Notes: generated by a model from the letters alone, not told the origin. DNA of 60,596 nucleotides from Patescibacteria group bacterium (GCA_041650775.1 JBAZKO010000003.1:1-60596), one strand, 5' to 3'. Shown: positions 1,231 to 42,975, counted from the first letter of the stretch. Translations and numbers: made by a program.

Positions 1231-2772
1231 ATGAACGACAAAAACGAACAAAAAATTAAATATGCCCTCTATTGCCGAAAGTCTACCGAAGACGATACTC
1301 GGCAAGTCTTGTCTTTGGATTCCCAAGAACAGGAAATGCTTAAAATGGCAAATAATTTAGGTTTAGAAATTATCCAAACTTTTAGAGAAAGCAAATCGGC
1401 CAAGAAACCAGATAATAGACCGCAATTTTTCGAACTTATCAATTTGATCAAGCGAGGTAAAATTGACGGCGTTATCTGTTGGAAGATTGACCGTCTTTCT
1501 CGTAATCCGATAGACTCGGCAATTATTCAATGGCTATTACAACAAAATAATTTGAAAATAATTCAAACAATGGAGCGACAATATTTGCCAGGCGATAACG
1601 CTTTGCTTTTTAATGTAGAAAGTGGAATGGCTAATCAATTTATTTTGGACTTATCCAAAAATGTTAAGCGAGGTATTAGAGCCAAACTATCTCAAGGTTA
1701 TTGGCCAAACCTTGCGCCTATCGGTTATTTGAACAAAGACTTAAAAATCGTGGTTGACAAACATCGGGCTAAATTTATCAGACGAGTATTTGAAATGTAT
1801 AATACTGGCAGGTATGGAGTCAAAGAAATATCGCAAATTCTCTATGAAGACGGATTCAGAAGTCGGGGCGGAAAAAAATATTATCCTAGCACCATTCATA
1901 TGATACTTAGCAATTCTTTCTACTGCGGAATTATGGAAAAAGACGGGATTAAATATTTAGGTAAATATGAGCCGATCATTACTAAAGCGTTATTTGATGA
2001 TGTCCAAGTTATTCTAGGAGTAAAAAAACACGTTAAATCTCAAATTATTCCTTTTGCTTTTCGGGGCTTACTCAAATGCGCCAAATGTGGCTGTCTGCTA
2101 ACAGCCACACTCAAGAAAGGCAAACATATTTACTACTATTGTACTAACGGCAAAAATACCTGCCAGGAGCATAAAGTCTATTTGACCGAGGATTATTTGG
2201 ATAAAGAATTACTGGGCGTATTTGATAAGCTGATATTTGACGATGAGGCGATTGAAATGTGCTATCAGACTAAAAAAGAACAAGGCAATAATAATCTAAA
2301 TTATTTAGAGGAGCTTGAGTTAAACCTAAAAAATCGGCTCGCCAAGCTCAAGGAAAGACGGAATACCTTACTAGACGCTTACCTTGATAAAACGCTAGAC
2401 AAGGCCGTTTATGAGGCCAAGGATAAGCAACTGAATAACGAAGAGATAAACTCTTTAAAAGATTTAAGCGACTTAAAAGAGAAATTAAAAGAGGCAGGTA
2501 CGGATACTTTGGAACGGATAAAAAATGTGTTTTTAGAGCCTAAAAGACTGAAAAATACCTTTTTAACTCTGTCTCTTGAGAAAAAACGAGAAGTCTTATT
2601 TTCCTTACTTTGGAACGCTGAAATCGGCAACAAAAAAATCGCTAATATTTCATTCAAAGCACCGTATAAACAGCTCTCTGAAATCACAAATAAAAGCGAT
2701 TTTTCTTCAATGCTCGGGGATAGGGATTCGAACCCCAATAAACAGGACCAGAACCTGTTGTCCTACCGTTAG
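1231..2772 (+). CDS. Large serine recombinase (integrase)
   Basis: N-terminal YCRKST catalytic Ser, DRLSRN motif, recombinase domain (GYWPNLAPIGY), Zn ribbon (CAKC...YYYC...C) and coiled coil. The last 20 codons are antisense to tRNA-Gln. Confidence 0.93.
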   Translation: MNDKNEQKIKYALYCRKSTEDDTRQVLSLDSQEQEMLKMANNLGLEIIQTFRESKSAKKPDNRPQFFELINLIKRGKIDGVICWKIDRLSRNPIDSAIIQWLLQQNNLKIIQTMERQYLPGDNALLFNVESGMANQFILDLSKNVKRGIRAKLSQGYWPNLAPIGYLNKDLKIVVDKHRAKFIRRVFEMYNTGRYGVKEISQILYEDGFRSRGGKKYYPSTIHMILSNSFYCGIMEKDGIKYLGKYEPIITKALFDDVQVILGVKKHVKSQIIPFAFRGLLKCAKCGCLLTATLKKGKHIYYYCTNGKNTCQEHKVYLTEDYLDKELLGVFDKLIFDDEAIEMCYQTKKEQGNNNLNYLEELELNLKNRLAKLKERRNTLLDAYLDKTLDKAVYEAKDKQLNNEEINSLKDLSDLKEKLKEAGTDTLERIKNVFLEPKRLKNTFLTLSLEKKREVLFSLLWNAEIGNKKIANISFKAPYKQLSEITNKSDFSSMLGDRDSNPNKQDQNLLSYR

Positions 2773-2783
2773 ACGATCCCCGA
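2713..2783 (-). tRNA. tRNA-Gln(CTG)
   Basis: Minus strand TCGGGGA...TCCCCGA-G acceptor stem with U1-A72 and G73; anticodon loop TTCTGGT; T-loop TTCGAAT. CCA is not encoded. Confidence 0.95.
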
Positions 2784-2790
2784 ATATTTT

Positions 2791-3228
2791 TTAATCTTTT
2801 ATTTTTTCCCAATCGGCTACGCCTCCCGCCGTTACTTGGAATAATCGGTTAGGCTTTACGGACGCTTCACTCTTTATTATTTGATAACGGGCGTAATCCC
2901 GCTCCCTAAGCTTATTTAAGAGATGCCGGAACTCATAAGTCAACTGACCTCTGCTTACTTTAATATTTTTTAATTTTTTTTTCAAGGGGGCGAGTTTGCG
3001 AGCCTCAAAATGATATCCGCGTTGCGTCGCTTCATTATATATTTCCGTCAAAAACCAATTAATATAAGCGAGCGGAACACCGGTCTGCCGGAATCTCGTG
3101 AGTTGCGGATGGTTCTTATAACCCCTGGTTTTTCCGGATAAAACCTTCTTAGCCAGTAAACCTTCGCGCCAGACCGCTAATAATCCTTGGCGATCCAGAT
3201 ATTGTGGGTGCAGGCTCCAAAGGCGCAT
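2791..3228 (-). CDS. Pyrimidine dimer DNA glycosylase (T4 endonuclease V family)
   Basis: N-terminal MRLWSLHP..LD..GL.A.WRE.LLA..VL and GYKNHPQL.RF signatures. Confidence 0.85.
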   Translation of the reverse strand: MRLWSLHPQYLDRQGLLAVWREGLLAKKVLSGKTRGYKNHPQLTRFRQTGVPLAYINWFLTEIYNEATQRGYHFEARKLAPLKKKLKNIKVSRGQLTYEFRHLLNKLRERDYARYQIIKSEASVKPNRLFQVTAGGVADWEKIKD

Positions 3229-3230
3229 AA

Positions 3231-4727
3231 TTAGGATTTCTTATTCTGTTCTTTCGGCCGCATCAGTGGAAAAATCTGGCATTCCCGGGAAGATTTATTC
3301 ATTAAGAAGCTAAACAGGCGTTCACTGAATCCAAAACCGCAAGTCGGCGGCATACCGTATTCAAGAGCTTCGACGAAATCATGATCGTGTTCCTGCGCCT
3401 CTTCATCGCCAGCTTCGCGTAATTTCTGCTGTTCCTTAAATCTTTCTTCCTGGTCTAGCGGATTATTTAATTCGCTATAGCCGTTGCCCATTTCCGAACC
3501 GGCTAAAATAACCTGGAATCTTTGCGCCAGAGCCGAATTTTTTTCATCGCGCTTGGCTAAGGGCGAAACCGTAATCGGCGTACCGACCAAAAATCCCGGT
3601 CCGGCGATTTGTTTGCGGCAATATTTCCATAAATTATCAATGGCGCGCGTTATGTTAAAACCTTTCTTCTCGTATTCCACGCCCAATTCTTCCAATTTCT
3701 TCTTTATTTCTTTCTCATCAGCCGTCAGGATATCCACGCCGGTCATCTTTTTAACGGTTTCACGATAATCATATCTTTCCCAGGCCTTTTCTAAATCGAC
3801 ATTAAAATCCTTAATTTTGAATTTAAGCGTTCCGAAAGTTTCTTGGGCGATATGTTTGTATAGCTCTTCCGTTAATTTCATGCCCGCTTCGTAATCGGCG
3901 TAAGCCCAATAAAATTCCATCTGGGTATAATCCTGCAGATGTTCGGCGTCCATACCTTCATTCCTGAACTGCCGCCCGATTTCAAAAGTCTTCTCCAGAC
4001 CGGCAACCATCAGTTTCTTCTGCCACAATTCGCCCATGGAAATCCGCAAAAAAACATCGATATCCAGCGCGTTATGATGGGTCTTGAAAGGTTTGGCGTC
4101 GGCACCGCCAGCCATTGTTTCCAAAATCGGCGTTTCTACCTCGATAAAATTCCGCGCCACTAAAAATTCCCGAGTCGTCTGCCAAAACTTGGCGCGCCGC
4201 ATAATCATTTCCCGTGTTTCCGGATTCAATAAAATGTCCAGATACCGGCGGCGAAATATCTCCTCCTCGTCTTTCAGTCCGTACCAAGCGTCCGGAATTG
4301 GCAGAAGAGCCTTAGTTAAAAGACGCCAACTTTTAACCATTAAACTTTTTTCGCCTTTATGGGTAAGAAAACAAACGCCACCAGCTTCCAAAAAGTCGCC
4401 GGTGTCGATTAATTTTACAAAATTTTTATAACTGCCGTCACCTAGGTCTTTTTTTGACAAGGCGATTTGCATCTGACCAGTGGCATCTTCCAAACTGGCG
4501 AAAGTCAGATTGCCGTGTGAGCGAATACTGCGCAGACGACCGACGATCTTAAATTCTTTTTCGGATTTCTGCAGGGACGCAAAATCAGCCAGCGCTTTCC
4601 CGATCAGATAATCACGCTCCGCTCTAGCCGGATAAGGATCAAGACCCAACTTAATCAGTTCCGCTAATTTTTTTAAGCGGTCGTCGCGTTCGCTCCCTGT
4701 TGTCTTAACATCTTTATCCTCGGACAT
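3231..4727 (-). CDS. lysS: Lysine--tRNA ligase (class II)
   Basis: OB-fold anticodon domain; FIEVETPIL, GRQFRNEG and EYGMPPTCGFGF motifs. Confidence 0.97.
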   Translation of the reverse strand: MSEDKDVKTTGSERDDRLKKLAELIKLGLDPYPARAERDYLIGKALADFASLQKSEKEFKIVGRLRSIRSHGNLTFASLEDATGQMQIALSKKDLGDGSYKNFVKLIDTGDFLEAGGVCFLTHKGEKSLMVKSWRLLTKALLPIPDAWYGLKDEEEIFRRRYLDILLNPETREMIMRRAKFWQTTREFLVARNFIEVETPILETMAGGADAKPFKTHHNALDIDVFLRISMGELWQKKLMVAGLEKTFEIGRQFRNEGMDAEHLQDYTQMEFYWAYADYEAGMKLTEELYKHIAQETFGTLKFKIKDFNVDLEKAWERYDYRETVKKMTGVDILTADEKEIKKKLEELGVEYEKKGFNITRAIDNLWKYCRKQIAGPGFLVGTPITVSPLAKRDEKNSALAQRFQVILAGSEMGNGYSELNNPLDQEERFKEQQKLREAGDEEAQEHDHDFVEALEYGMPPTCGFGFSERLFSFLMNKSSRECQIFPLMRPKEQNKKS

Positions 4728-29467: not shown

Positions 29468-29893
29468 GTTATTGGGACAGCCGTAAGCCGGATTCTGTTC
29501 TAAACGATCATTTATCTGGGCCCGTTATCGCTAACGGGCTCGAGCGAGCCACTTGTCATTGCCGCCCCCGGCCGCCGACTAGCGACGGCCGATAGCGGCA
29601 AGTTTGCTCTTGCTTTCGATAGGGTTTACCACGGCATCTCCGTCACCGGAGGCCGAAACCGGTAGCTCGGGTCGCCCCAAGCATCCGATATCTTTTCACC
29701 TTTGATTCTGTTAAAAAATTCCAGAATTAGTATTGTCTCTGTGGCACTTTCCCTGATCCGTCGATTCGCTTAACGCGTACCGACCGACCGGTGGGCGTTA
29801 CCCACTATCGTTTTTGCTCAAAAAGAGCTTTTAAAGTCCGGACTTTCCTCCCCGTTTTAAAAAACGGAGCGATCGCCCGCTTACCCCAATAAC
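29468..29893 (-). ncRNA. rnpB: RNase P RNA
   Basis: GAGGAAAGTCCGG, GAAAGTGCCACAGA and GAACAGAATCCGGCTTA; P1 GTTATTGGG/CCCAATAAC; promoter TTGCTT-N17-TATTAT at 29900-29928. Confidence 0.95.
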
Positions 29894-37340: not shown

Positions 37341-40300
37341 TTAGTTATGTAAGCTACCACCGGTCACGCTGGTGTACGGTAAATGCATTTCCGTCAAACC
37401 ATTGTGCTGGATAGAATCGTCAGTACCAGTGCCATTAAGGTCGCTGATAACGGTCTGGACGCTGTAGTTAACAGCGGCGCCAGCAATGGTAACAGAAGGC
37501 GCGGTTATAACTAAAGTAACCGAGTCATCAACTTTGCCACTGTTCAACAGGGCATGCATCTTAGTGCTACCCCAAACGCCTTCAGAGTCTTCAGCCACTT
37601 CAGTAGTGGTGCCATCAACCTTTAAGGTTAAAGTACCCAAAGCTGTAACGGCCGCGTTATTCCTGTTAATGGTCACGGCGAAGTTGTCCAACTGAGCCTT
37701 GTAAGCATCATTACTACCGTCTACTAAACGGTTATTACCATGCTCAAAAGTCAGAGTGTACTTGCCGATAACCTGGCTGCCGGAAGACAAAATGCCATCG
37801 GCCAACGCATTAACAACCGAGTTCAACTTAACACCAGTGATGGTGAAAGTCTTAGAAAGGTCGTTTTGATCATACTGATCATCACCAGTAATAGCATTAA
37901 TACCGGTCATGACAATATCGGTACCGGAATTAACGCCGGAAGCGGTAACGGAACTAGCCGTACTCAGATTATACTGTATTGTATCTCCCTGAGTAGCCGT
38001 GGAAGAAGCGTCACCATCCACATTAATACCTCTCGCTAAAGGCGAGATGAACAACGAAGTGGACTTGTCGGCTTCAAAGGTGATATCAAACGGATCGAAG
38101 ATTACGTCTCCGTTGGATTCAGCAGTCTGAGAAGCGACAACAGTACCATCAGCTTTAACTAATCTGACAGTGCTGATATCAGAGCTGGAGTCAGTTCCAT
38201 TGCTGGTCAAGATTAATTTCTTAACCTTGATCGGCTCATTCTTGGTGGTGAACTTCAATTCGCCTATATACTTAGAGGCGGAAGTCGCACCGGCCAAAAT
38301 GTACTGATCCTGGCTAGCATTGGTATCGGAGGTTAATAACTCAACCTTCAAATGACCGACAGAGGCCTCGGTAATCAAGCGAGCTCCACCTGTGGCTCCG
38401 CCGGTAACAGAGACATCTTTGTTGCCAGTAACAGACTTAGCAACAATATCAGTCGTAGCATTAGCAACTCCCAAGTTGAAAGTCGCGGCACCGGTAAAGG
38501 TGGAAGAGAAAGACGCTTTAACGACTAAGTTCACTTCCTTGCCAGCGGCAATGCTATTAGTATCCAAGGAGCTAAAGGTAATAGTTCTGGTCGTTTCGAC
38601 AATATTGTTAGCAAGAGATTTAATCAATACGCCGTCGAGATACAGATCCAATTTAGTGATGTTGTTGTCACTAAAAGCAGTAATGTTGTCAGTAACGGTA
38701 GAAGTTAATTTCAAAGAATTAAGCTTTACGCCGTCAGCGGCACCCGCTTTCAATTTAGCGGCATAAACTTCGACATCAGAAGCGCCGGTAACCACGGTCT
38801 TGTTGGTCAAATTAGTGACGTTCCAAGCCAAGGAGGCGCCTTTAACGGTCATAATAGAACCGTCAACGGAGGCCGGAGTAATGTCGGCTGTTAAGATGGT
38901 GGTGTTAGAAACATCACCAGTAACTTTTATACCAGCCGCCGCCAAATGAACCTGTAAGGTATTATTGACGTCAATTTCATCACCAGTAGCATCATTTAAA
39001 TCAGCTTTGACCAGGAATTTCTTAGCAACACCTCTGGTTAAGTTGATTTCATCCGATAAAGTCAAATTATAATGATCAGCGACGAAAGCCGCATCCAAAT
39101 CATATTCGCCGCCGGTCAAAACATCAACTAAACGAACGTTACTGATTTCGTCGGCTTGTAAGCCGTCGCCGCCAGTACCGACGATAGTAAAGTTACCAGC
39201 ACCGGTGATTTCTTCTAAGGTGGCATCTTCGCCATTAGACTTAAAGGATAAAGTAGCTAAGACAACACCATCATCGCCAGCCTTAACATCCTTAGACGGA
39301 GTCGCGGCTTTATCGGCATCAATAGTGAAATCGCTAGCAGTTAACGAGATAGTCATCGCTTCAGTAACAGTATCTAACTTTTCGAAACTACCAAAACCAG
39401 TACCGGCTACGGTGTCGTCTTCAAGCTGTAAAGCATAACCGAAGGTAGCACCAATCGCGGAAATATCAGCGCGATTCTTGAAATACAAGCTAATAGAATC
39501 ATTGACATTAGTTGTACCCATATCACCGCGAACTTCTACAGTAATAGAATCGTTCTTTTCGATCTTATAGTTGTTAAGAGCGAAAGAAACATAACCGTCG
39601 CTGTAAGTACCGGTAGCGGCTTCGTTGCCATCAAGGATCAACTTTAAGTTAGAAACAATATCGGATACGTTAGTACCGCCGTTCTTAAGCTTTAAGTTAG
39701 TCAATAAAGCAGCCTCGTTATTAGCCTTCAAAGTAAAGCTAGCTAATAAGATATTATCTTCACCGAAGTCGGCATTAACCGCGCTGGTATCCGGAGTACC
39801 GGAAATCTGCAAGGTACCGACATTGGCGGAAGCAACCGCGCTCTGTTTATTACCGCGAATCGGGAAAGAACCGGAAACAGTCGCGCTGGTAGCGGTAATA
39901 TCGGAAGCGGCGGCGATACCTAGGGCGTAGTCGCCAGCGGCCGCAGCGGTCGCTTTAACGACTAAAGTCTTAGTAGTACCGGCCGCGACAGAAATCGGAG
40001 TAGCAAAAGAGAAGATCGCTTCCCTATTGGAATTGATGTTCTTGGAACTGCCAACCTTGACGCCATTATCATAGATAGTGACATCATCAATGTTGGTAGC
40101 TGTACCCAATTCATAAGCGGTTAACTTCAAGCTGGAAACATTAACGGCGCCATCATTGGCGGCGGTTAAGTTCAAAGACAAGAAGCTGGCCGGAGAAGCG
40201 GTCGGGATAGTCGCCGAAGCGGACGTAGCGGCGCTCAAAGAAACCATCAAACCGGAACCGGTAATAACCGTGTTGGCGGCCGAGGCGCCCTGAGCGACGT

Positions 40301-40967
40301 TAACGAATTCCGCGCTGGAAACTTCCGTGCCACCGGCAGAAACCGTGCTGGCCGCGGTAATCACATTAGCGATCTGGAATCTGTTAGCGTTCAAAGCCGC
40401 TTCATTCGAGATTTTTCGGTAATTGGTACCATTATAGTAAAAGATATCGGCACCAGTCGCGTTCTTTACTAAAGAACCGGCCGGAGTCGCACCGCTCGCT
40501 AAAACAGAACCGATAGTGTAGTTGGTGAAAAAAGCATCCGGAACATCAACTACTCTCTTGTTCCAGTTGGTGCCATATAAAGCAGCCGCCTGGGCTTCAG
40601 ACTGGATCTTTCTTAAAACACCGTTAGGTTCAACGGCGTAAACGGAAGGATCAGTCGTGATTTTCACTAACTTTGTACCCGGTCTAACGGTTACATTGCC
40701 GCCCAACGGGTAGCTCTGTAATTCAGCCGACGGGATAGTTACCACGCCGCTGAAATCAGCGTACCAGGTAGCATAAGTAGTGGAATTCGGGAAAACATAT
40801 CTCTTGCCATCAGCGCCCAGATAATAAACGGAAGAATTGCCAGCCATCTTGATAAGGTCGCCAGCCGAAGCCGCGGCGTTAGCAGACGGAGCGATAACGA
40901 TACCGCTCATAGCAATCACCGATAAAATCATTACGCCAACAACCAAGAATCTGCGTAATTTGTTCAT
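37341..40967 (-). CDS. Large secreted S-layer-like surface protein (1208 aa)
   Basis: Signal peptide; repeated LIK...SVYY...GKR modules at the N-terminus; then Ala/Thr/Ser/Val-rich beta modules; no Cys. Confidence 0.7.
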   Translation of the reverse strand: MNKLRRFLVVGVMILSVIAMSGIVIAPSANAAASAGDLIKMAGNSSVYYLGADGKRYVFPNSTTYATWYADFSGVVTIPSAELQSYPLGGNVTVRPGTKLVKITTDPSVYAVEPNGVLRKIQSEAQAAALYGTNWNKRVVDVPDAFFTNYTIGSVLASGATPAGSLVKNATGADIFYYNGTNYRKISNEAALNANRFQIANVITAASTVSAGGTEVSSAEFVNVAQGASAANTVITGSGLMVSLSAATSASATIPTASPASFLSLNLTAANDGAVNVSSLKLTAYELGTATNIDDVTIYDNGVKVGSSKNINSNREAIFSFATPISVAAGTTKTLVVKATAAAAGDYALGIAAASDITATSATVSGSFPIRGNKQSAVASANVGTLQISGTPDTSAVNADFGEDNILLASFTLKANNEAALLTNLKLKNGGTNVSDIVSNLKLILDGNEAATGTYSDGYVSFALNNYKIEKNDSITVEVRGDMGTTNVNDSISLYFKNRADISAIGATFGYALQLEDDTVAGTGFGSFEKLDTVTEAMTISLTASDFTIDADKAATPSKDVKAGDDGVVLATLSFKSNGEDATLEEITGAGNFTIVGTGGDGLQADEISNVRLVDVLTGGEYDLDAAFVADHYNLTLSDEINLTRGVAKKFLVKADLNDATGDEIDVNNTLQVHLAAAGIKVTGDVSNTTILTADITPASVDGSIMTVKGASLAWNVTNLTNKTVVTGASDVEVYAAKLKAGAADGVKLNSLKLTSTVTDNITAFSDNNITKLDLYLDGVLIKSLANNIVETTRTITFSSLDTNSIAAGKEVNLVVKASFSSTFTGAATFNLGVANATTDIVAKSVTGNKDVSVTGGATGGARLITEASVGHLKVELLTSDTNASQDQYILAGATSASKYIGELKFTTKNEPIKVKKLILTSNGTDSSSDISTVRLVKADGTVVASQTAESNGDVIFDPFDITFEADKSTSLFISPLARGINVDGDASSTATQGDTIQYNLSTASSVTASGVNSGTDIVMTGINAITGDDQYDQNDLSKTFTITGVKLNSVVNALADGILSSGSQVIGKYTLTFEHGNNRLVDGSNDAYKAQLDNFAVTINRNNAAVTALGTLTLKVDGTTTEVAEDSEGVWGSTKMHALLNSGKVDDSVTLVITAPSVTIAGAAVNYSVQTVISDLNGTGTDDSIQHNGLTEMHLPYTSVTGGSLHN

Positions 40968-41442
40968 AAAATAGTAATTAAATCATTTTTAATTGTCCGG
41001 ACAACAGTAGTCCGAACGAATTAATAATGACAGTTGTCCAGTTCGCCGCTTCGTTTCGATTTAAAAAAATCCAACGGTAAATCAGTCGGAATCCCGCTCC
41101 GCCAGCTCGTGAAAGCTTAAGGCGAAGGCTGACTGATCTTAAAAAACATAAGTTCTGCCAACCTAGCGCGTGTTGCTCCGGGCTGGAGAAAAGCTTAACC
41201 GATTTACTGTTTTTAGTTTATAAATCTGGTCAGCTTTGAACTGGAAATAATAAGGTTTGTAAGGGACAAACCACCTCAATTTAATGAGGCTCGACCCTTG
41301 ATGGGGTTTGCCAATCCGTTTTTCGAACCGAAGTTCCAAACGCGGATTTGTTAATTTATCTCGCCCGGTATTGTCCAGAACGGAGGACGGATCTTCCAAA
41401 AAGGAGTAACCGAATATGGAGATAAACTAACAGACACGCGCT
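40968..41442 (-). promoter_or_regulatory. Long structured 5' leader of the S-layer-like gene
   Basis: Long-range stem AGCGCGTGT(41442-41434)/ACACGCGCT(41173-41165) encloses several helices, including a cUUCGg tetraloop. Confidence 0.65.
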
Positions 41443-41460
41443 TTAATATATAAAAAATCT

Positions 41461-42345
41461 TTACTTGATTATTTCATCGATCGCTTCCTGCAACTTATCG
41501 GAAGCCTGGGTATAATTCGCGGAATCGAATAATTTTTGTGCTTCATCCAAAATCTTATCGGAATCAGAAACATTATCCGCGGCCGGAACGGGAACAACTA
41601 GTGTGGAACTGGCGGAGCTGGCAATCAGGGCACCGTCGGACACGGCCGGTAAAATTATTTCCGGGTTAACGGCGCCCGTGGCGGTGGCGCTTATTGAAGG
41701 GTTAATCGGATTAATGGCGATGGGCGCAGTATTGCCGGCGCCGGTACCGGTAGATAATTGAATACCCTGCGTGTCTTTGGAACTGTCGGCAATCGTTAAT
41801 AGTTCCGATTGGGCGATCGGCTGATCTTTCGTCGTCGCCGCCAGACGATTTATTCCCTCCTTAACCGTCACGACTTCTTTTTTAAAACTATCGTTTAATT
41901 TCGCGACCTGATCCTGATTCTCTTCTGTATTGAATTGCGGATCGGCTAAAACGGCGGTAATATCCCGAGCATGTTCGGAAGCGAACTGAACAGCCAACTT
42001 ATTCCGTTCCTGAGAATTAAACATCGTATTCAGTTTAACTTTTTCGGAAATTATTCGGGCGATATATAAAGAATCATTCGGTTTGGTTTTATTAAGCGTT
42101 CTCTGACTGAACAGACTGCCGACAACCAGCATCAGAACAAAAACACCCAAAGCGTAAGCCGGCCGTGAAGCCGCGCGCATCGTGCTTTCAAAATTAATCA
42201 CAAAAATTTTCCAGGCGGACAGTTCAACCGCGCCGGAATTAGAAATTTGAGATAACAAAAGTTCCCGATTGCTTTTCAGCCAATTCTGATCGGGATTTAT
42301 TTTCTTTAAATTATTCAATTTTACGACGAGTTCGCGGTTGGTCAT
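41461..42345 (-). CDS. Probable anti-sigma factor (single TM, extracellular helical domain)
   Basis: Directly downstream of the ECF sigma; short cytoplasmic N-domain (PDQNWLKSNRELLL), TM, then PNDSLYIARIISEKV. Confidence 0.65.
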   Translation of the reverse strand: MTNRELVVKLNNLKKINPDQNWLKSNRELLLSQISNSGAVELSAWKIFVINFESTMRAASRPAYALGVFVLMLVVGSLFSQRTLNKTKPNDSLYIARIISEKVKLNTMFNSQERNKLAVQFASEHARDITAVLADPQFNTEENQDQVAKLNDSFKKEVVTVKEGINRLAATTKDQPIAQSELLTIADSSKDTQGIQLSTGTGAGNTAPIAINPINPSISATATGAVNPEIILPAVSDGALIASSASSTLVVPVPAADNVSDSDKILDEAQKLFDSANYTQASDKLQEAIDEIIK

Positions 42346-42370: not shown

Positions 42371-42398
42371 TATACGTAAAATCCGCTAAAATGTTACA
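42371..42398 (-). promoter_or_regulatory. ECF-type promoter upstream of the anti-sigma gene
   Basis: TGTAAC-N16-CGTATA, resembling B. subtilis SigW/SigX-type AAC/CGT promoters. Confidence 0.6.
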
Positions 42399-42975
42399 CC
42401 TTTCGCTCCTTCTCCACCAGTTCCCGTAGAGCGTTCAGGGCGCGATGCAATATAACCCGGACATTCCCTTTAGTTTTTCCGCTAACTTCAGCTATTTCTT
42501 CTAACGATAAATCATTGACAAATTTCATAATTATCACTTCCCGATATTCTTCTTTTAAGAACGGCAGTTGGCGCTTAATCAATTCCATCTCTGCTTCCTG
42601 GTCAATCTTTCCTTCAGCGTCCTGAGTTTCGTCAACCACTTCTATTTTATTATCTTCATCATCCAAAGAAGCGACGATCCGACCGCCGGATTCGCGATAA
42701 TAATCAATGATTGAAGTCCGGGCGATTTTATAAAGCAAAGCGCGCAAAGTTTTCGCGTCTTCCAAATTGTTGTTCTGGATATGATTCCAGGCCTTTAAAA
42801 AAATCATCGAAGTCAGGTCGTTAGCCTCTTCCCGACTGCCGATTTTAAAATAAACAAAACGGTGGATCTCGTTCACATTTTCATCATAAATCCTGATAAA
42901 CGCTTCCTTATCATGATTTTTAAGCTTGCTTAACGCTTGCTTATCTTTAAATTTTTGAATCAAATTTATCGACAT
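42394..42975 (-). CDS. ECF (sigma-24/RpoE-type) RNA polymerase sigma factor
   Basis: Region 2 (ANDLTSMIFLKAW, LYKIART.IIDYYR) and region 4 (LSLEEIAEVSG....VRVILHRA). Confidence 0.92.
   Translation of the reverse strand: MSINLIQKFKDKQALSKLKNHDKEAFIRIYDENVNEIHRFVYFKIGSREEANDLTSMIFLKAWNHIQNNNLEDAKTLRALLYKIARTSIIDYYRESGGRIVASLDDEDNKIEVVDETQDAEGKIDQEAEMELIKRQLPFLKEEYREVIIMKFVNDLSLEEIAEVSGKTKGNVRVILHRALNALRELVEKERKV

Follow-up and report, generated by a model that had tools for sequence, protein, structure and literature searches.

The 493-nt non-coding gap between two minus-strand genes of a member of Candidatus Falkowbacteria (source genome of 886 kb, 97% complete) harbors, on its minus (sense) strand, a real structured RNA that is conserved. 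The gap spans positions 40968 to 41460 of the window, by which we mean the whole stretch of 60,596 nucleotides that was analyzed, and the RNA occupies most of it, directly 5' of the gene for a large secreted surface protein (Table 1). We consider it probable that this is a new RNA of very large size that acts in cis, as a leader or intercistronic segment, to set the expression of the surface protein. The RNA is previously uncatalogued, with no Rfam match, no conserved open reading frame (ORF), and no describing paper found.

Table 1. Features of the RNA and its neighborhood, in window coordinates
Feature	Position	Strand	Description
Surface-protein gene	37341-40967	-	1208-aa secreted protein without known family; always directly 3' of the RNA
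Start codon and spacer	40965-40981	-	A/U-rich, without Shine-Dalgarno; start codon 40967-40965
Whole conserved RNA element	40982-41443	-	~460 nt; runs from AAGCGCG (5' strand) to the 3' foot of the module D hairpin
Module D hairpin	40982-41031	-	~20 bp; stops 14 nt short of the AUG
H6, 3' strand	41038-41044	-	GAACUGG; H6 encloses module C
Variable hairpin	41045-41076	-	Between module C and the H6 3' strand; length and sequence vary (A2)
Module C	41077-41207	-	Near-invariant core GUAAAUCGGUUAAGCUUUUCUCC-[insert]-GGRGRAGCGGGAUUCCGAYYGAUUUAC
Conserved module C loop	41165-41175	-	CAACACGCGCU; able to pair with the RNA 5' end
H6, 5' strand	41238-41244	-	CCAGUUC; pairs with 41044-41038
Conserved single strand after P3	41256-41263	-	CUUAYAAA; from alignments
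Module B, three-way junction P3	41265-41312	-	GGCAAACC:GGUUUGUC with inner hairpin; covariation
P3 junction strand	41299-41291	-	AAGGGUCGA; near-invariant
P2 hairpin	41313-41348	-	AAUCCG...CGGAUU; 97.4% paired, 4/6 pairs compensatory; variable insert as cap
Module A, long hairpin P1	41338-41443	-	Base AAGCGCG:CGCGUUU, then 14-bp core UGUUAGUUUAUCUC:GAGAUAAAUUAACA, branched tip
P1 tip hairpin	41382-41397	-	GGAAGA-UNCG-UCNUCC; 96% paired, mostly invariant
DUF5667 membrane protein gene	41461-42345	-	Anti-sigma-like; upstream neighbor in the source genus; synteny
ECF-type promoter motif	42371-42398	-	TGTAAC-N16-CGTATA; ahead of the DUF5667 gene

A sequence-only reading of the window had proposed that an S-layer-like gene is preceded, on the sense strand, by a large RNA of complex structure, and folding energy, covariation, and conservation all agreed with this. 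The minimum free energy of the sense strand was -160 kcal/mol, compared to -117.6 ± 6.0 kcal/mol for dinucleotide shuffles (z = -7.0), and the antisense strand of the gap gave z = -4.5 in the same test. At the DNA level, the gap was 68 to 77% identical in 31 of the 37 genomes of the source genus and was thereby more conserved than the flanking proteins, which in the same genus showed identities of 38 to 62% (DUF5667) and 58 to 78% (N termini of the surface protein). That the RNA is better conserved than its neighboring proteins implies that it has a strong function, one linked to the cell surface. Its gap also kept a steady length of ~450 to 550 nt, even in families whose surface protein was ~45 to 55% identical. 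The longest sense ORFs ranged from 15 to 121 aa across the copies and were not conserved, and the length of the central segment modulo 3 was evenly spread (14/18/19), with indels that were not multiples of three. Unconserved ORFs and indels without 3-nt periodicity together ruled out a protein-coding reading of the gap.

For the structural model, we gathered 72 distinct copies of the RNA and aligned the 51 full-length ones (alignment A2; mean pairwise identity, 66%); alignments were made with L-INS-i and by an anchor-split approach, and that of module C is referred to as A1. A single-column covariation scan was too noisy, owing to shared ancestry, and a helix-level scan and counts with controls were used instead. 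The helix-level scan, RNAalifold, and inspection gave a model of 116 pairs, partly derived from the sequences used for testing, which was 90.4% paired on A2, compared to 84.6% for shuffles and 34 to 47% when the partners were slid. Upstream of homologous surface-protein genes, where it had been suggested to look for covariation, compensatory changes were abundant, with 56 pairs and 400 cells, compared to 39 pairs and 143 cells in shuffles and at most 146 cells with slid partners; the shuffle and slide controls take no account of phylogeny. Conserved G.U pairs were frequent in the model (e.g., at alignment columns 475:607, 61:189, and 738:756) and therefore fix the RNA on the strand of the genes, the orientation that the G.U pairs of the single sequence had suggested. 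These data also bear on the idea that the gap holds DNA-level signals (a promoter, operators, or inverted repeats that a DNA-binding protein recognizes) or a short protein gene missed in annotation, as might be read from the arms of the P1 14-bp core, which are invariant in sequence beyond what concerns pairing, and from a 78-codon TTG ORF in the gap of the source genome. The compensatory changes at 56 pairs, with one helix whose strands lie 190 nt apart, the conserved G.U pairs that suit one strand only, and the unconserved ORFs with indels not in threes argue against this, and we regard it as extremely improbable.

Much of the 5' half of the sequence-only fold was recovered. The 13-bp helix that it had placed at 41431-41419 and 41362-41350 proved to be the invariant core of P1, a hairpin of 23 pairs that was 95.5% paired and in which 8 pairs had changed on both sides (column 48:202, CG 28 and UA 14). 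The proposed AAUCCG helix stands as P2, but the GAAC-UUCG-GUUC cap drawn on it is a lineage-specific insert of 0 to 60 nt. Likewise, the three-way junction P3 and its inner hairpin were found again, with 95% and 88% pairing, respectively, and compensatory changes in both; the AAGGUCGA segment of the P3 junction strand was retained in distant families as well. Pairing between the conserved CUUAYAAA and the P3 3' strand showed no compensation across the aligned species. The closing stem that had been drawn around the structure (41442-41434 with 41173-41165) fared less well: it forms 9 perfect pairs in the source but was 75.7% paired over the 51 species. Its 5' strand covaried locally instead, with 15 compensated cells for columns 48:202 compared to none for 48:510, where 17 one-sided changes were counted. 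When register shifts were allowed, the best partner of the conserved loop CAACACGCGC was the RNA 5' end in 24 of 51 species, and the closing stem may therefore be an auxiliary or lineage-specific contact.

In the 3' half, the two halves of module C pair with each other to give a three-way core with closing stems Ha and Hb and a mini-hairpin (A1 alignment and structure counts). The core of ~130 nt was near-invariant, and the insert was clade-specific, with a length of 6 to ~200 nt. Module C is enclosed by H6, a long-range helix of 7 bp with strands 190 nt apart, which was 88% paired and compensatory at 7 of 7 pairs. Three elements of the sequence-only fold were lost here: the AAAGCUGACC..GGUUAAGCUUU arm was 62% paired with zero compensation, a hairpin at 41138-41080 clashed with better-supported helices, and a GGACAAC/GUUGUCC hairpin was 63 to 72% paired; jointly, they did no better than shuffles. 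The last two had been named as large hairpins ahead of the gene, and while a hairpin region does precede the ATG, the real hairpin lies at 41031-40982. This is module D, with 20 pairs of which 16 were compensatory and the outermost 6 were weak. Its loop, UACUAUU, was conserved and reads UACUGUU in the source genome (41009-41003). Covariation-backed structure thus extends to ~22 nt upstream of the AUG. H6, the three-way core at 41207-41077, and the 41031-40982 hairpin were absent from the sequence-only reading.

Genome counts were made with R1, a covariance model of the module C core. It matched 159 of 301 genomes of the order (142 of the 229 high-quality ones), almost always in a single copy per genome; the matches covered 44 of 96 genera and at least 12 families. 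There was no match to R1 in ~390 genomes from other orders of the class. With search filters off, divergent copies appeared in 2 of 4 further families, with compensatory changes in their closing stems. Genomes of the same genus that had no RNA mostly had no surface-protein gene either. Outside unrelated taxa, all 74 of 74 contig matches had the surface-protein and/or DUF5667 gene as a flank, or the gene start at the contig end; the remaining 4 contig matches fell in unrelated taxa, compared to ~9 estimated to be expected by chance.

The order sigma, DUF5667, RNA, surface protein was the same at 20 of 20 loci from other families. A SAM-methyltransferase-like gene was also seen between the DUF5667 gene and the RNA in other families, and there the RNA still adjoined the surface-protein gene, which indicates that it belongs with the downstream gene. 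The RNA therefore sits within a module of an ECF sigma factor, a DUF5667 protein and, in some families, a methyltransferase. Sequence searches gave no Pfam, NCBIfam, or PDB relative for the surface protein. The DUF5667 protein (294 aa) had a weak match to PF18915, below the cut-off, and the sigma gene that precedes it (42394-42975) had a BldN-family ECF as its top NCBIfam model, at 112 bits, below the family cut-off of 206 bits. In Streptomyces, BldN and RsbN form an ECF sigma/anti-sigma pair that controls the chaplin and rodlin surface proteins. The locus resembles this system in its BldN-family-like sigma, membrane-bound anti-sigma-like protein, surface-protein gene, and promoter of the GTAAC-N16-CGT type, and differs from it in that no large RNA is known in the Streptomyces system, the surface proteins are unrelated, and the sigma match is below cut-off.

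Covariance-model searches placed the gap in no known family, as the sequence-only reading had surmised. Rfam 15 gave no match in the gap at gathering thresholds, and at E values up to 10 the sole match was a 12-bit chance hit to a viral pseudoknot; on eight homologous loci, the searches returned nothing but a sub-threshold plant miRNA match. The segment AGCGGGGUUACCGAU resembles what we take to be the 3' end of the c-di-GMP-I riboswitch, AGCGGGAUUCCGAU, a likeness that the model search did not bear out. Literature searches found no described RNA of such kind in Falkowbacteria, Patescibacteria, or CPR. Among the housekeeping RNAs, tmRNA was rejected, as ARAGORN placed it on contig C4 (34083-34465) and found none on the window's contig, C3, and so was RNase P RNA, which Rfam located elsewhere (29469-29888). 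For 6S RNA, RF00013 had no match in the gap or in the source genome, and for the antitermination elements EAR and put, neither Rfam model matched in the gap. SRP RNA was rejected as well, with no SRP family among the gap matches at E values up to 10. The SRP models RF00169 and RF01854 found nothing in the source genome; the small SRP model was likewise without a match among 61 relatives and among 201 genomes from the class, as was the large one among 21 relatives. The universal distribution of SRP RNA is not shared by the element, and with the RNA confined to one order and SRP RNA undetected in the whole class, it cannot be the missing SRP RNA of the class. SRP RNA typically has a GNAR tetraloop and an AGCA loop, neither of which was seen in the RNA upon inspection.

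These searches, together with the gene linkage, speak to whether the RNA could be a stable trans-acting RNA or RNP subunit (a new "ornate large RNA" or, at the extreme, a divergent SRP or 6S RNA) that is merely co-transcribed with or adjacent to the surface-protein gene. Like OLE, GOLLD, ROOL, and the raiA motif, the RNA is several hundred nucleotides long and lineage-restricted, with a multi-domain build, many covarying helices, and invariant blocks. It is also single-copy and has a compact domain closed by a long-range helix, and the failure of the SRP and 6S models to match anything in the source genome leaves a housekeeping RNA unaccounted for. Furthermore, with the outer 6 pairs of the last hairpin being weak, a separate RNA gene followed by an mRNA with a short leader may apply. 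However, OLE, GOLLD, ROOL, and the raiA motif are stand-alone and often phage- or membrane-associated, whereas the RNA is invariably fused 5' of one gene and shows no sequence or model similarity to them. The absolute linkage to one gene over the order, despite a changed upstream neighbor, argues for a role in cis, and the covariation-backed structure runs nearly to the AUG (~22 nt). The RNA is also confined to one order, the SRP and 6S models are silent on the gap, and tmRNA and RNase P RNA lie elsewhere. A trans-acting RNA is, in our view, unlikely.

An alternative-pairing switch had been part of the sequence-only reading, and a candidate for one was found, but with other strands. The GGUUUGU and ACAAACC strands named at the time were 85% paired, with just 2 compensated cells, while a different competition, between the P1 base and P2, was supported by covariation on either side. 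Strand b (AAAUCCGCGUUU, 41348-41338), which forms the 3' side of the P1 base, has two complementary partners, the RNA 5' end and the P2 3' strand (CGGAUU..., strand c), and pairs with the latter to give P2. The P2 5' arm thus overlaps the 3' strand of the P1 base, making the two helices mutually exclusive, and since both pairings are compensated, covariation links three columns at a time (54-196-278 and 55-195-279). The P1-base and P2 pairings were incompatible in species whose P2 loop has 4 nt. Under thermodynamic constraints, 45 of 48 species had full P1 as their ground state, and forcing P2 cost +4.0 ± 2.4 kcal/mol. The three-strand layout could also be discerned in a clade that is distant (a, UUAGUGUGAAUUUA; b, AAAAAUCCACAUU; c, AAGUGGAGG). 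A second competition was found in the module C insert, where four similar strands (CCAGCC, GGYUGG, YCAGCC, and GGCUGG) gave two exclusive schemes with equivalent counts. Judged from the aligned sequences, the competing pairings of P1 base and P2 and of module C are probably hallmarks of a two-state RNA, although the three-way covariation of P1 base and P2 may instead reflect a pseudoknot or a folding intermediate.

Competing pairings of this kind raise the question of a true riboswitch, in which the module C core and the AAGGUCGA pocket would bind a small molecule, e.g., a cell-envelope precursor or a second messenger, and so decide which of the P1 and P2 folds and which of the module C folds is adopted, thereby controlling the expression of the surface protein. 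Near-invariant unpaired nucleotides bounded by covarying helices would be in keeping with this, as would mutually exclusive pairings that are each compensated, an energy gap (~4 kcal/mol) of a size that a ligand could bridge, and the location upstream of a gene. However, the element is single-copy and tied to one gene family, unlike most metabolite riboswitches, which usually control several genes of a pathway, and it far exceeds any known aptamer in size. Moreover, no Rfam riboswitch model matched at E values up to 10, and no conserved terminator or platform sequestering the start site was found. We therefore hold a true riboswitch to be rather unlikely.

As to how the RNA is transcribed, 56 of 71 homologous loci had GTAAC-N16-CGT upstream of it at one site only, which lay ahead of the DUF5667 gene. 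Between the DUF5667 gene and the RNA there was no terminator-like site, and the sole terminator-like hairpin was not conserved across species. Just 5' of the RNA we found no consistent sigma-70-type promoter but scattered A/T-rich words, which in some species were -10-like and lay directly upstream. The source genome does have leaderless-type promoters, which show up as a peak of TATAAT-like hexamers at -12, but no well-placed -10 box of this type lay upstream of the ATG of the surface-protein gene. Given the placement of the ECF motif, the lack of a terminator, and the lack of a proximal -10 box, the simplest reading is a single transcript that runs through the RNA into the surface-protein gene, and this transcript would start at the ECF promoter or at an unrecognized promoter at the RNA 5' end. 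On the side of translation, a Shine-Dalgarno-like motif was present at 7% of the long ORFs in the source genome and in 5 of 68 homologous leaders. With hardly any Shine-Dalgarno use and no conserved terminator, no canonical expression platform was found.

The same data touch on processive antitermination in the manner of EAR or put, by which the RNA would modify RNA polymerase so that the 3.6-kb surface-protein gene is fully transcribed. EAR is an element of the eps operons of Bacillales, and the position of the RNA, as an intercistronic structured RNA in an operon that builds a cell-surface structure and before a very long gene, parallels it; the strong sequence conservation is likewise expected of an RNA that contacts a conserved machine. 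On the other hand, EAR has ~120 nt and a defined pseudoknotted fold, and the RNA is four times larger than EAR and put elements and bears no likeness to their Rfam models. Terminators to override were not identified, and no result bears directly on RNA polymerase. We regard antitermination as very unlikely.

The reading that we favor, a cis-acting leader or intercistronic RNA, would work as follows. The RNA would be the long 5' leader of the surface-protein gene or an intercistronic segment of an operon driven from the ECF promoter. Strand b would pair either with the 5' end, giving full P1 as the ground state, or with strand c, giving P2, so that two folds are available, and the module C insert would adopt one of its two exclusive pairing schemes. 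A trans factor that recognizes the invariant junction nucleotides, perhaps a small ligand or one of the proteins of the sigma/anti-sigma/surface-protein module, would shift the balance between the folds, and the shift would in turn affect how the downstream mRNA is read through, processed, stabilized, or translated. The terminal hairpin might serve as a stabilizer or as a standby structure for Shine-Dalgarno-independent initiation. More specifically, and as a tentative possibility that we rate below even chance, the RNA could be the founding member of a new class of ~0.45-kb leader RNAs, of sensor or RNP type and confined to a single order of Patescibacteria, in which the three-way core and the AAGGUCGA junction bind a ligand or a protein of the module and flip a two-state fold, both between P1 base and P2 and between the two module C schemes.

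Known leaders offer partial parallels for a cis-acting RNA of this kind. S-layer protein mRNAs, e.g., that of Lactobacillus slpA, carry stabilizing 5' UTR stem-loops (PMC10221546). Such leaders share with the RNA a structured non-coding segment immediately 5' of the gene that encodes the most abundant surface protein and a stable hairpin near the start codon, which could shield the mRNA and hold the initiation region open. They measure, however, tens to ~200 nt, contain one or two hairpins, and are little conserved in sequence, whereas the RNA, a putative 5' UTR, has ~460 nt, is multi-domain, near-invariant over 130 nt, and found order-wide, and has a long-range helix and competing pairings. 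Autoregulatory leaders that bind a protein, namely those of ribosomal-protein genes, resemble it in being single-copy and tied to one gene or operon, in having invariant unpaired nucleotides, and in cis control, which for the RNA is the presumed mode of action. They are much smaller, and as the product of the downstream gene is secreted here, any feedback would have to pass through an intracellular pool or through a different protein of the module.

The genomes of Patescibacteria (CPR) are tiny and densely packed, and very few regulatory RNAs are known from them; this order nevertheless devotes ~0.5 kb to a single non-coding RNA. The cell surface is the interface through which these bacteria, which are putatively host-dependent, attach and feed. 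If the RNA is a leader, it would be several-fold longer than the described S-layer mRNA leaders and far more elaborate, and it would exemplify two-state control by an RNA where Shine-Dalgarno sequences are rarely used. Binding of a ligand or a protein would make it a new sensor class, and were the new-class reading true, the status of the envelope would be coupled directly to synthesis of the major surface protein. The RNA provides a single-copy marker for the lineage, and its compact core of ~130 nt is amenable to probing, pull-down, and cryo-EM; minimal versions of module C occur in other clades.

A conserved ECF-type promoter motif, GTAAC-N16-CGT, was found overlapping the stop codon of the sigma factor gene and upstream of the DUF5667 gene, and 56 of 71 loci had it at the corresponding site. 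For the sigma factor itself, the top NCBIfam model was the BldN family, with a score below the cut-off. Elsewhere in the order, other families have an additional gene separating the DUF5667 gene from the RNA; its product, of ~255 aa and with the sequence VLDIASGSGYG, resembles class-I SAM-methyltransferases. Gaps of ~1280 nt in four further loci (L018, L020, L068, and L105) probably contain the same gene.

Some copies of the RNA were unusual. At one locus, L166, two copies occur in the gap. The first is truncated, comprising modules A and B (hairpin P1 and three-way junction P3) and the 5′ half of the near-invariant core, module C, whereas the one after it is complete; either part of the element was duplicated in tandem, or two strains were joined in a chimeric assembly. 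We also observed GC-rich repetitive inserts, located in the variable loops of the RNA or in the spacer upstream of it, and those of L006 and L016 look like small mobile hairpin repeats. Some genomes of the same genus in which neither the large surface-protein gene nor the RNA is present encode a ~350-aa protein. In the three loci concerned, its similarity was confined to the conserved N-terminal domain of the surface protein (residues ~21-156), and in the G244 copy the reading frame is interrupted by six stop codons.

Coordinates and positions of features at the RNA locus, in related loci, and of the tmRNA gene
Feature	Location	Position or context	Sequence
ECF-type promoter motif	window	42371-42398 (minus)	GTAAC-N16-CGT
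Truncated and complete RNA copies	L166 (G242:C32)	~2700-3540	
GC-rich repetitive insert	L006	1530-2040, P2 cap	CCGCCAUCCGCCAUCCGCC...GGCGGAGGCAGAGGCAGAGGCGG
GC-rich repetitive insert	L016	upstream of RNA	repeated GAGUCGGACUUCG units
SAM-methyltransferase-like gene	L139, L142, L145, L146, L149	~1430-2270 in each	
~350-aa protein	L163-L165 (G244, G010, G236)		
tmRNA gene	genome contig C4	34083-34465	tag peptide AKTARAFTWACPSYAPVMA

We also considered translation starts in the window's own genome. Among its ORFs of at least 200 aa, just 7% carried an SD-like motif at positions -20 to -4, and position -1 was T in 76%. TATAAT-like hexamers peak at -12 (34, versus ~10 at other positions), an indication that leaderless mRNAs form a substantial class in this genome.

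SRP RNA gave no match in this genome (97% complete) with either the small (RF00169) or the large (RF01854) model, both of which gave matches in control genomes. The small model likewise had zero matches in 61 relatives and in a sample of the class comprising 201 genomes; for the large model, 21 relatives gave zero matches. The SRP RNA of the class is either strongly diverged or was overlooked by the first-look filter. No match to 6S RNA was obtained in the window's genome, and a tmRNA gene was identified with ARAGORN.
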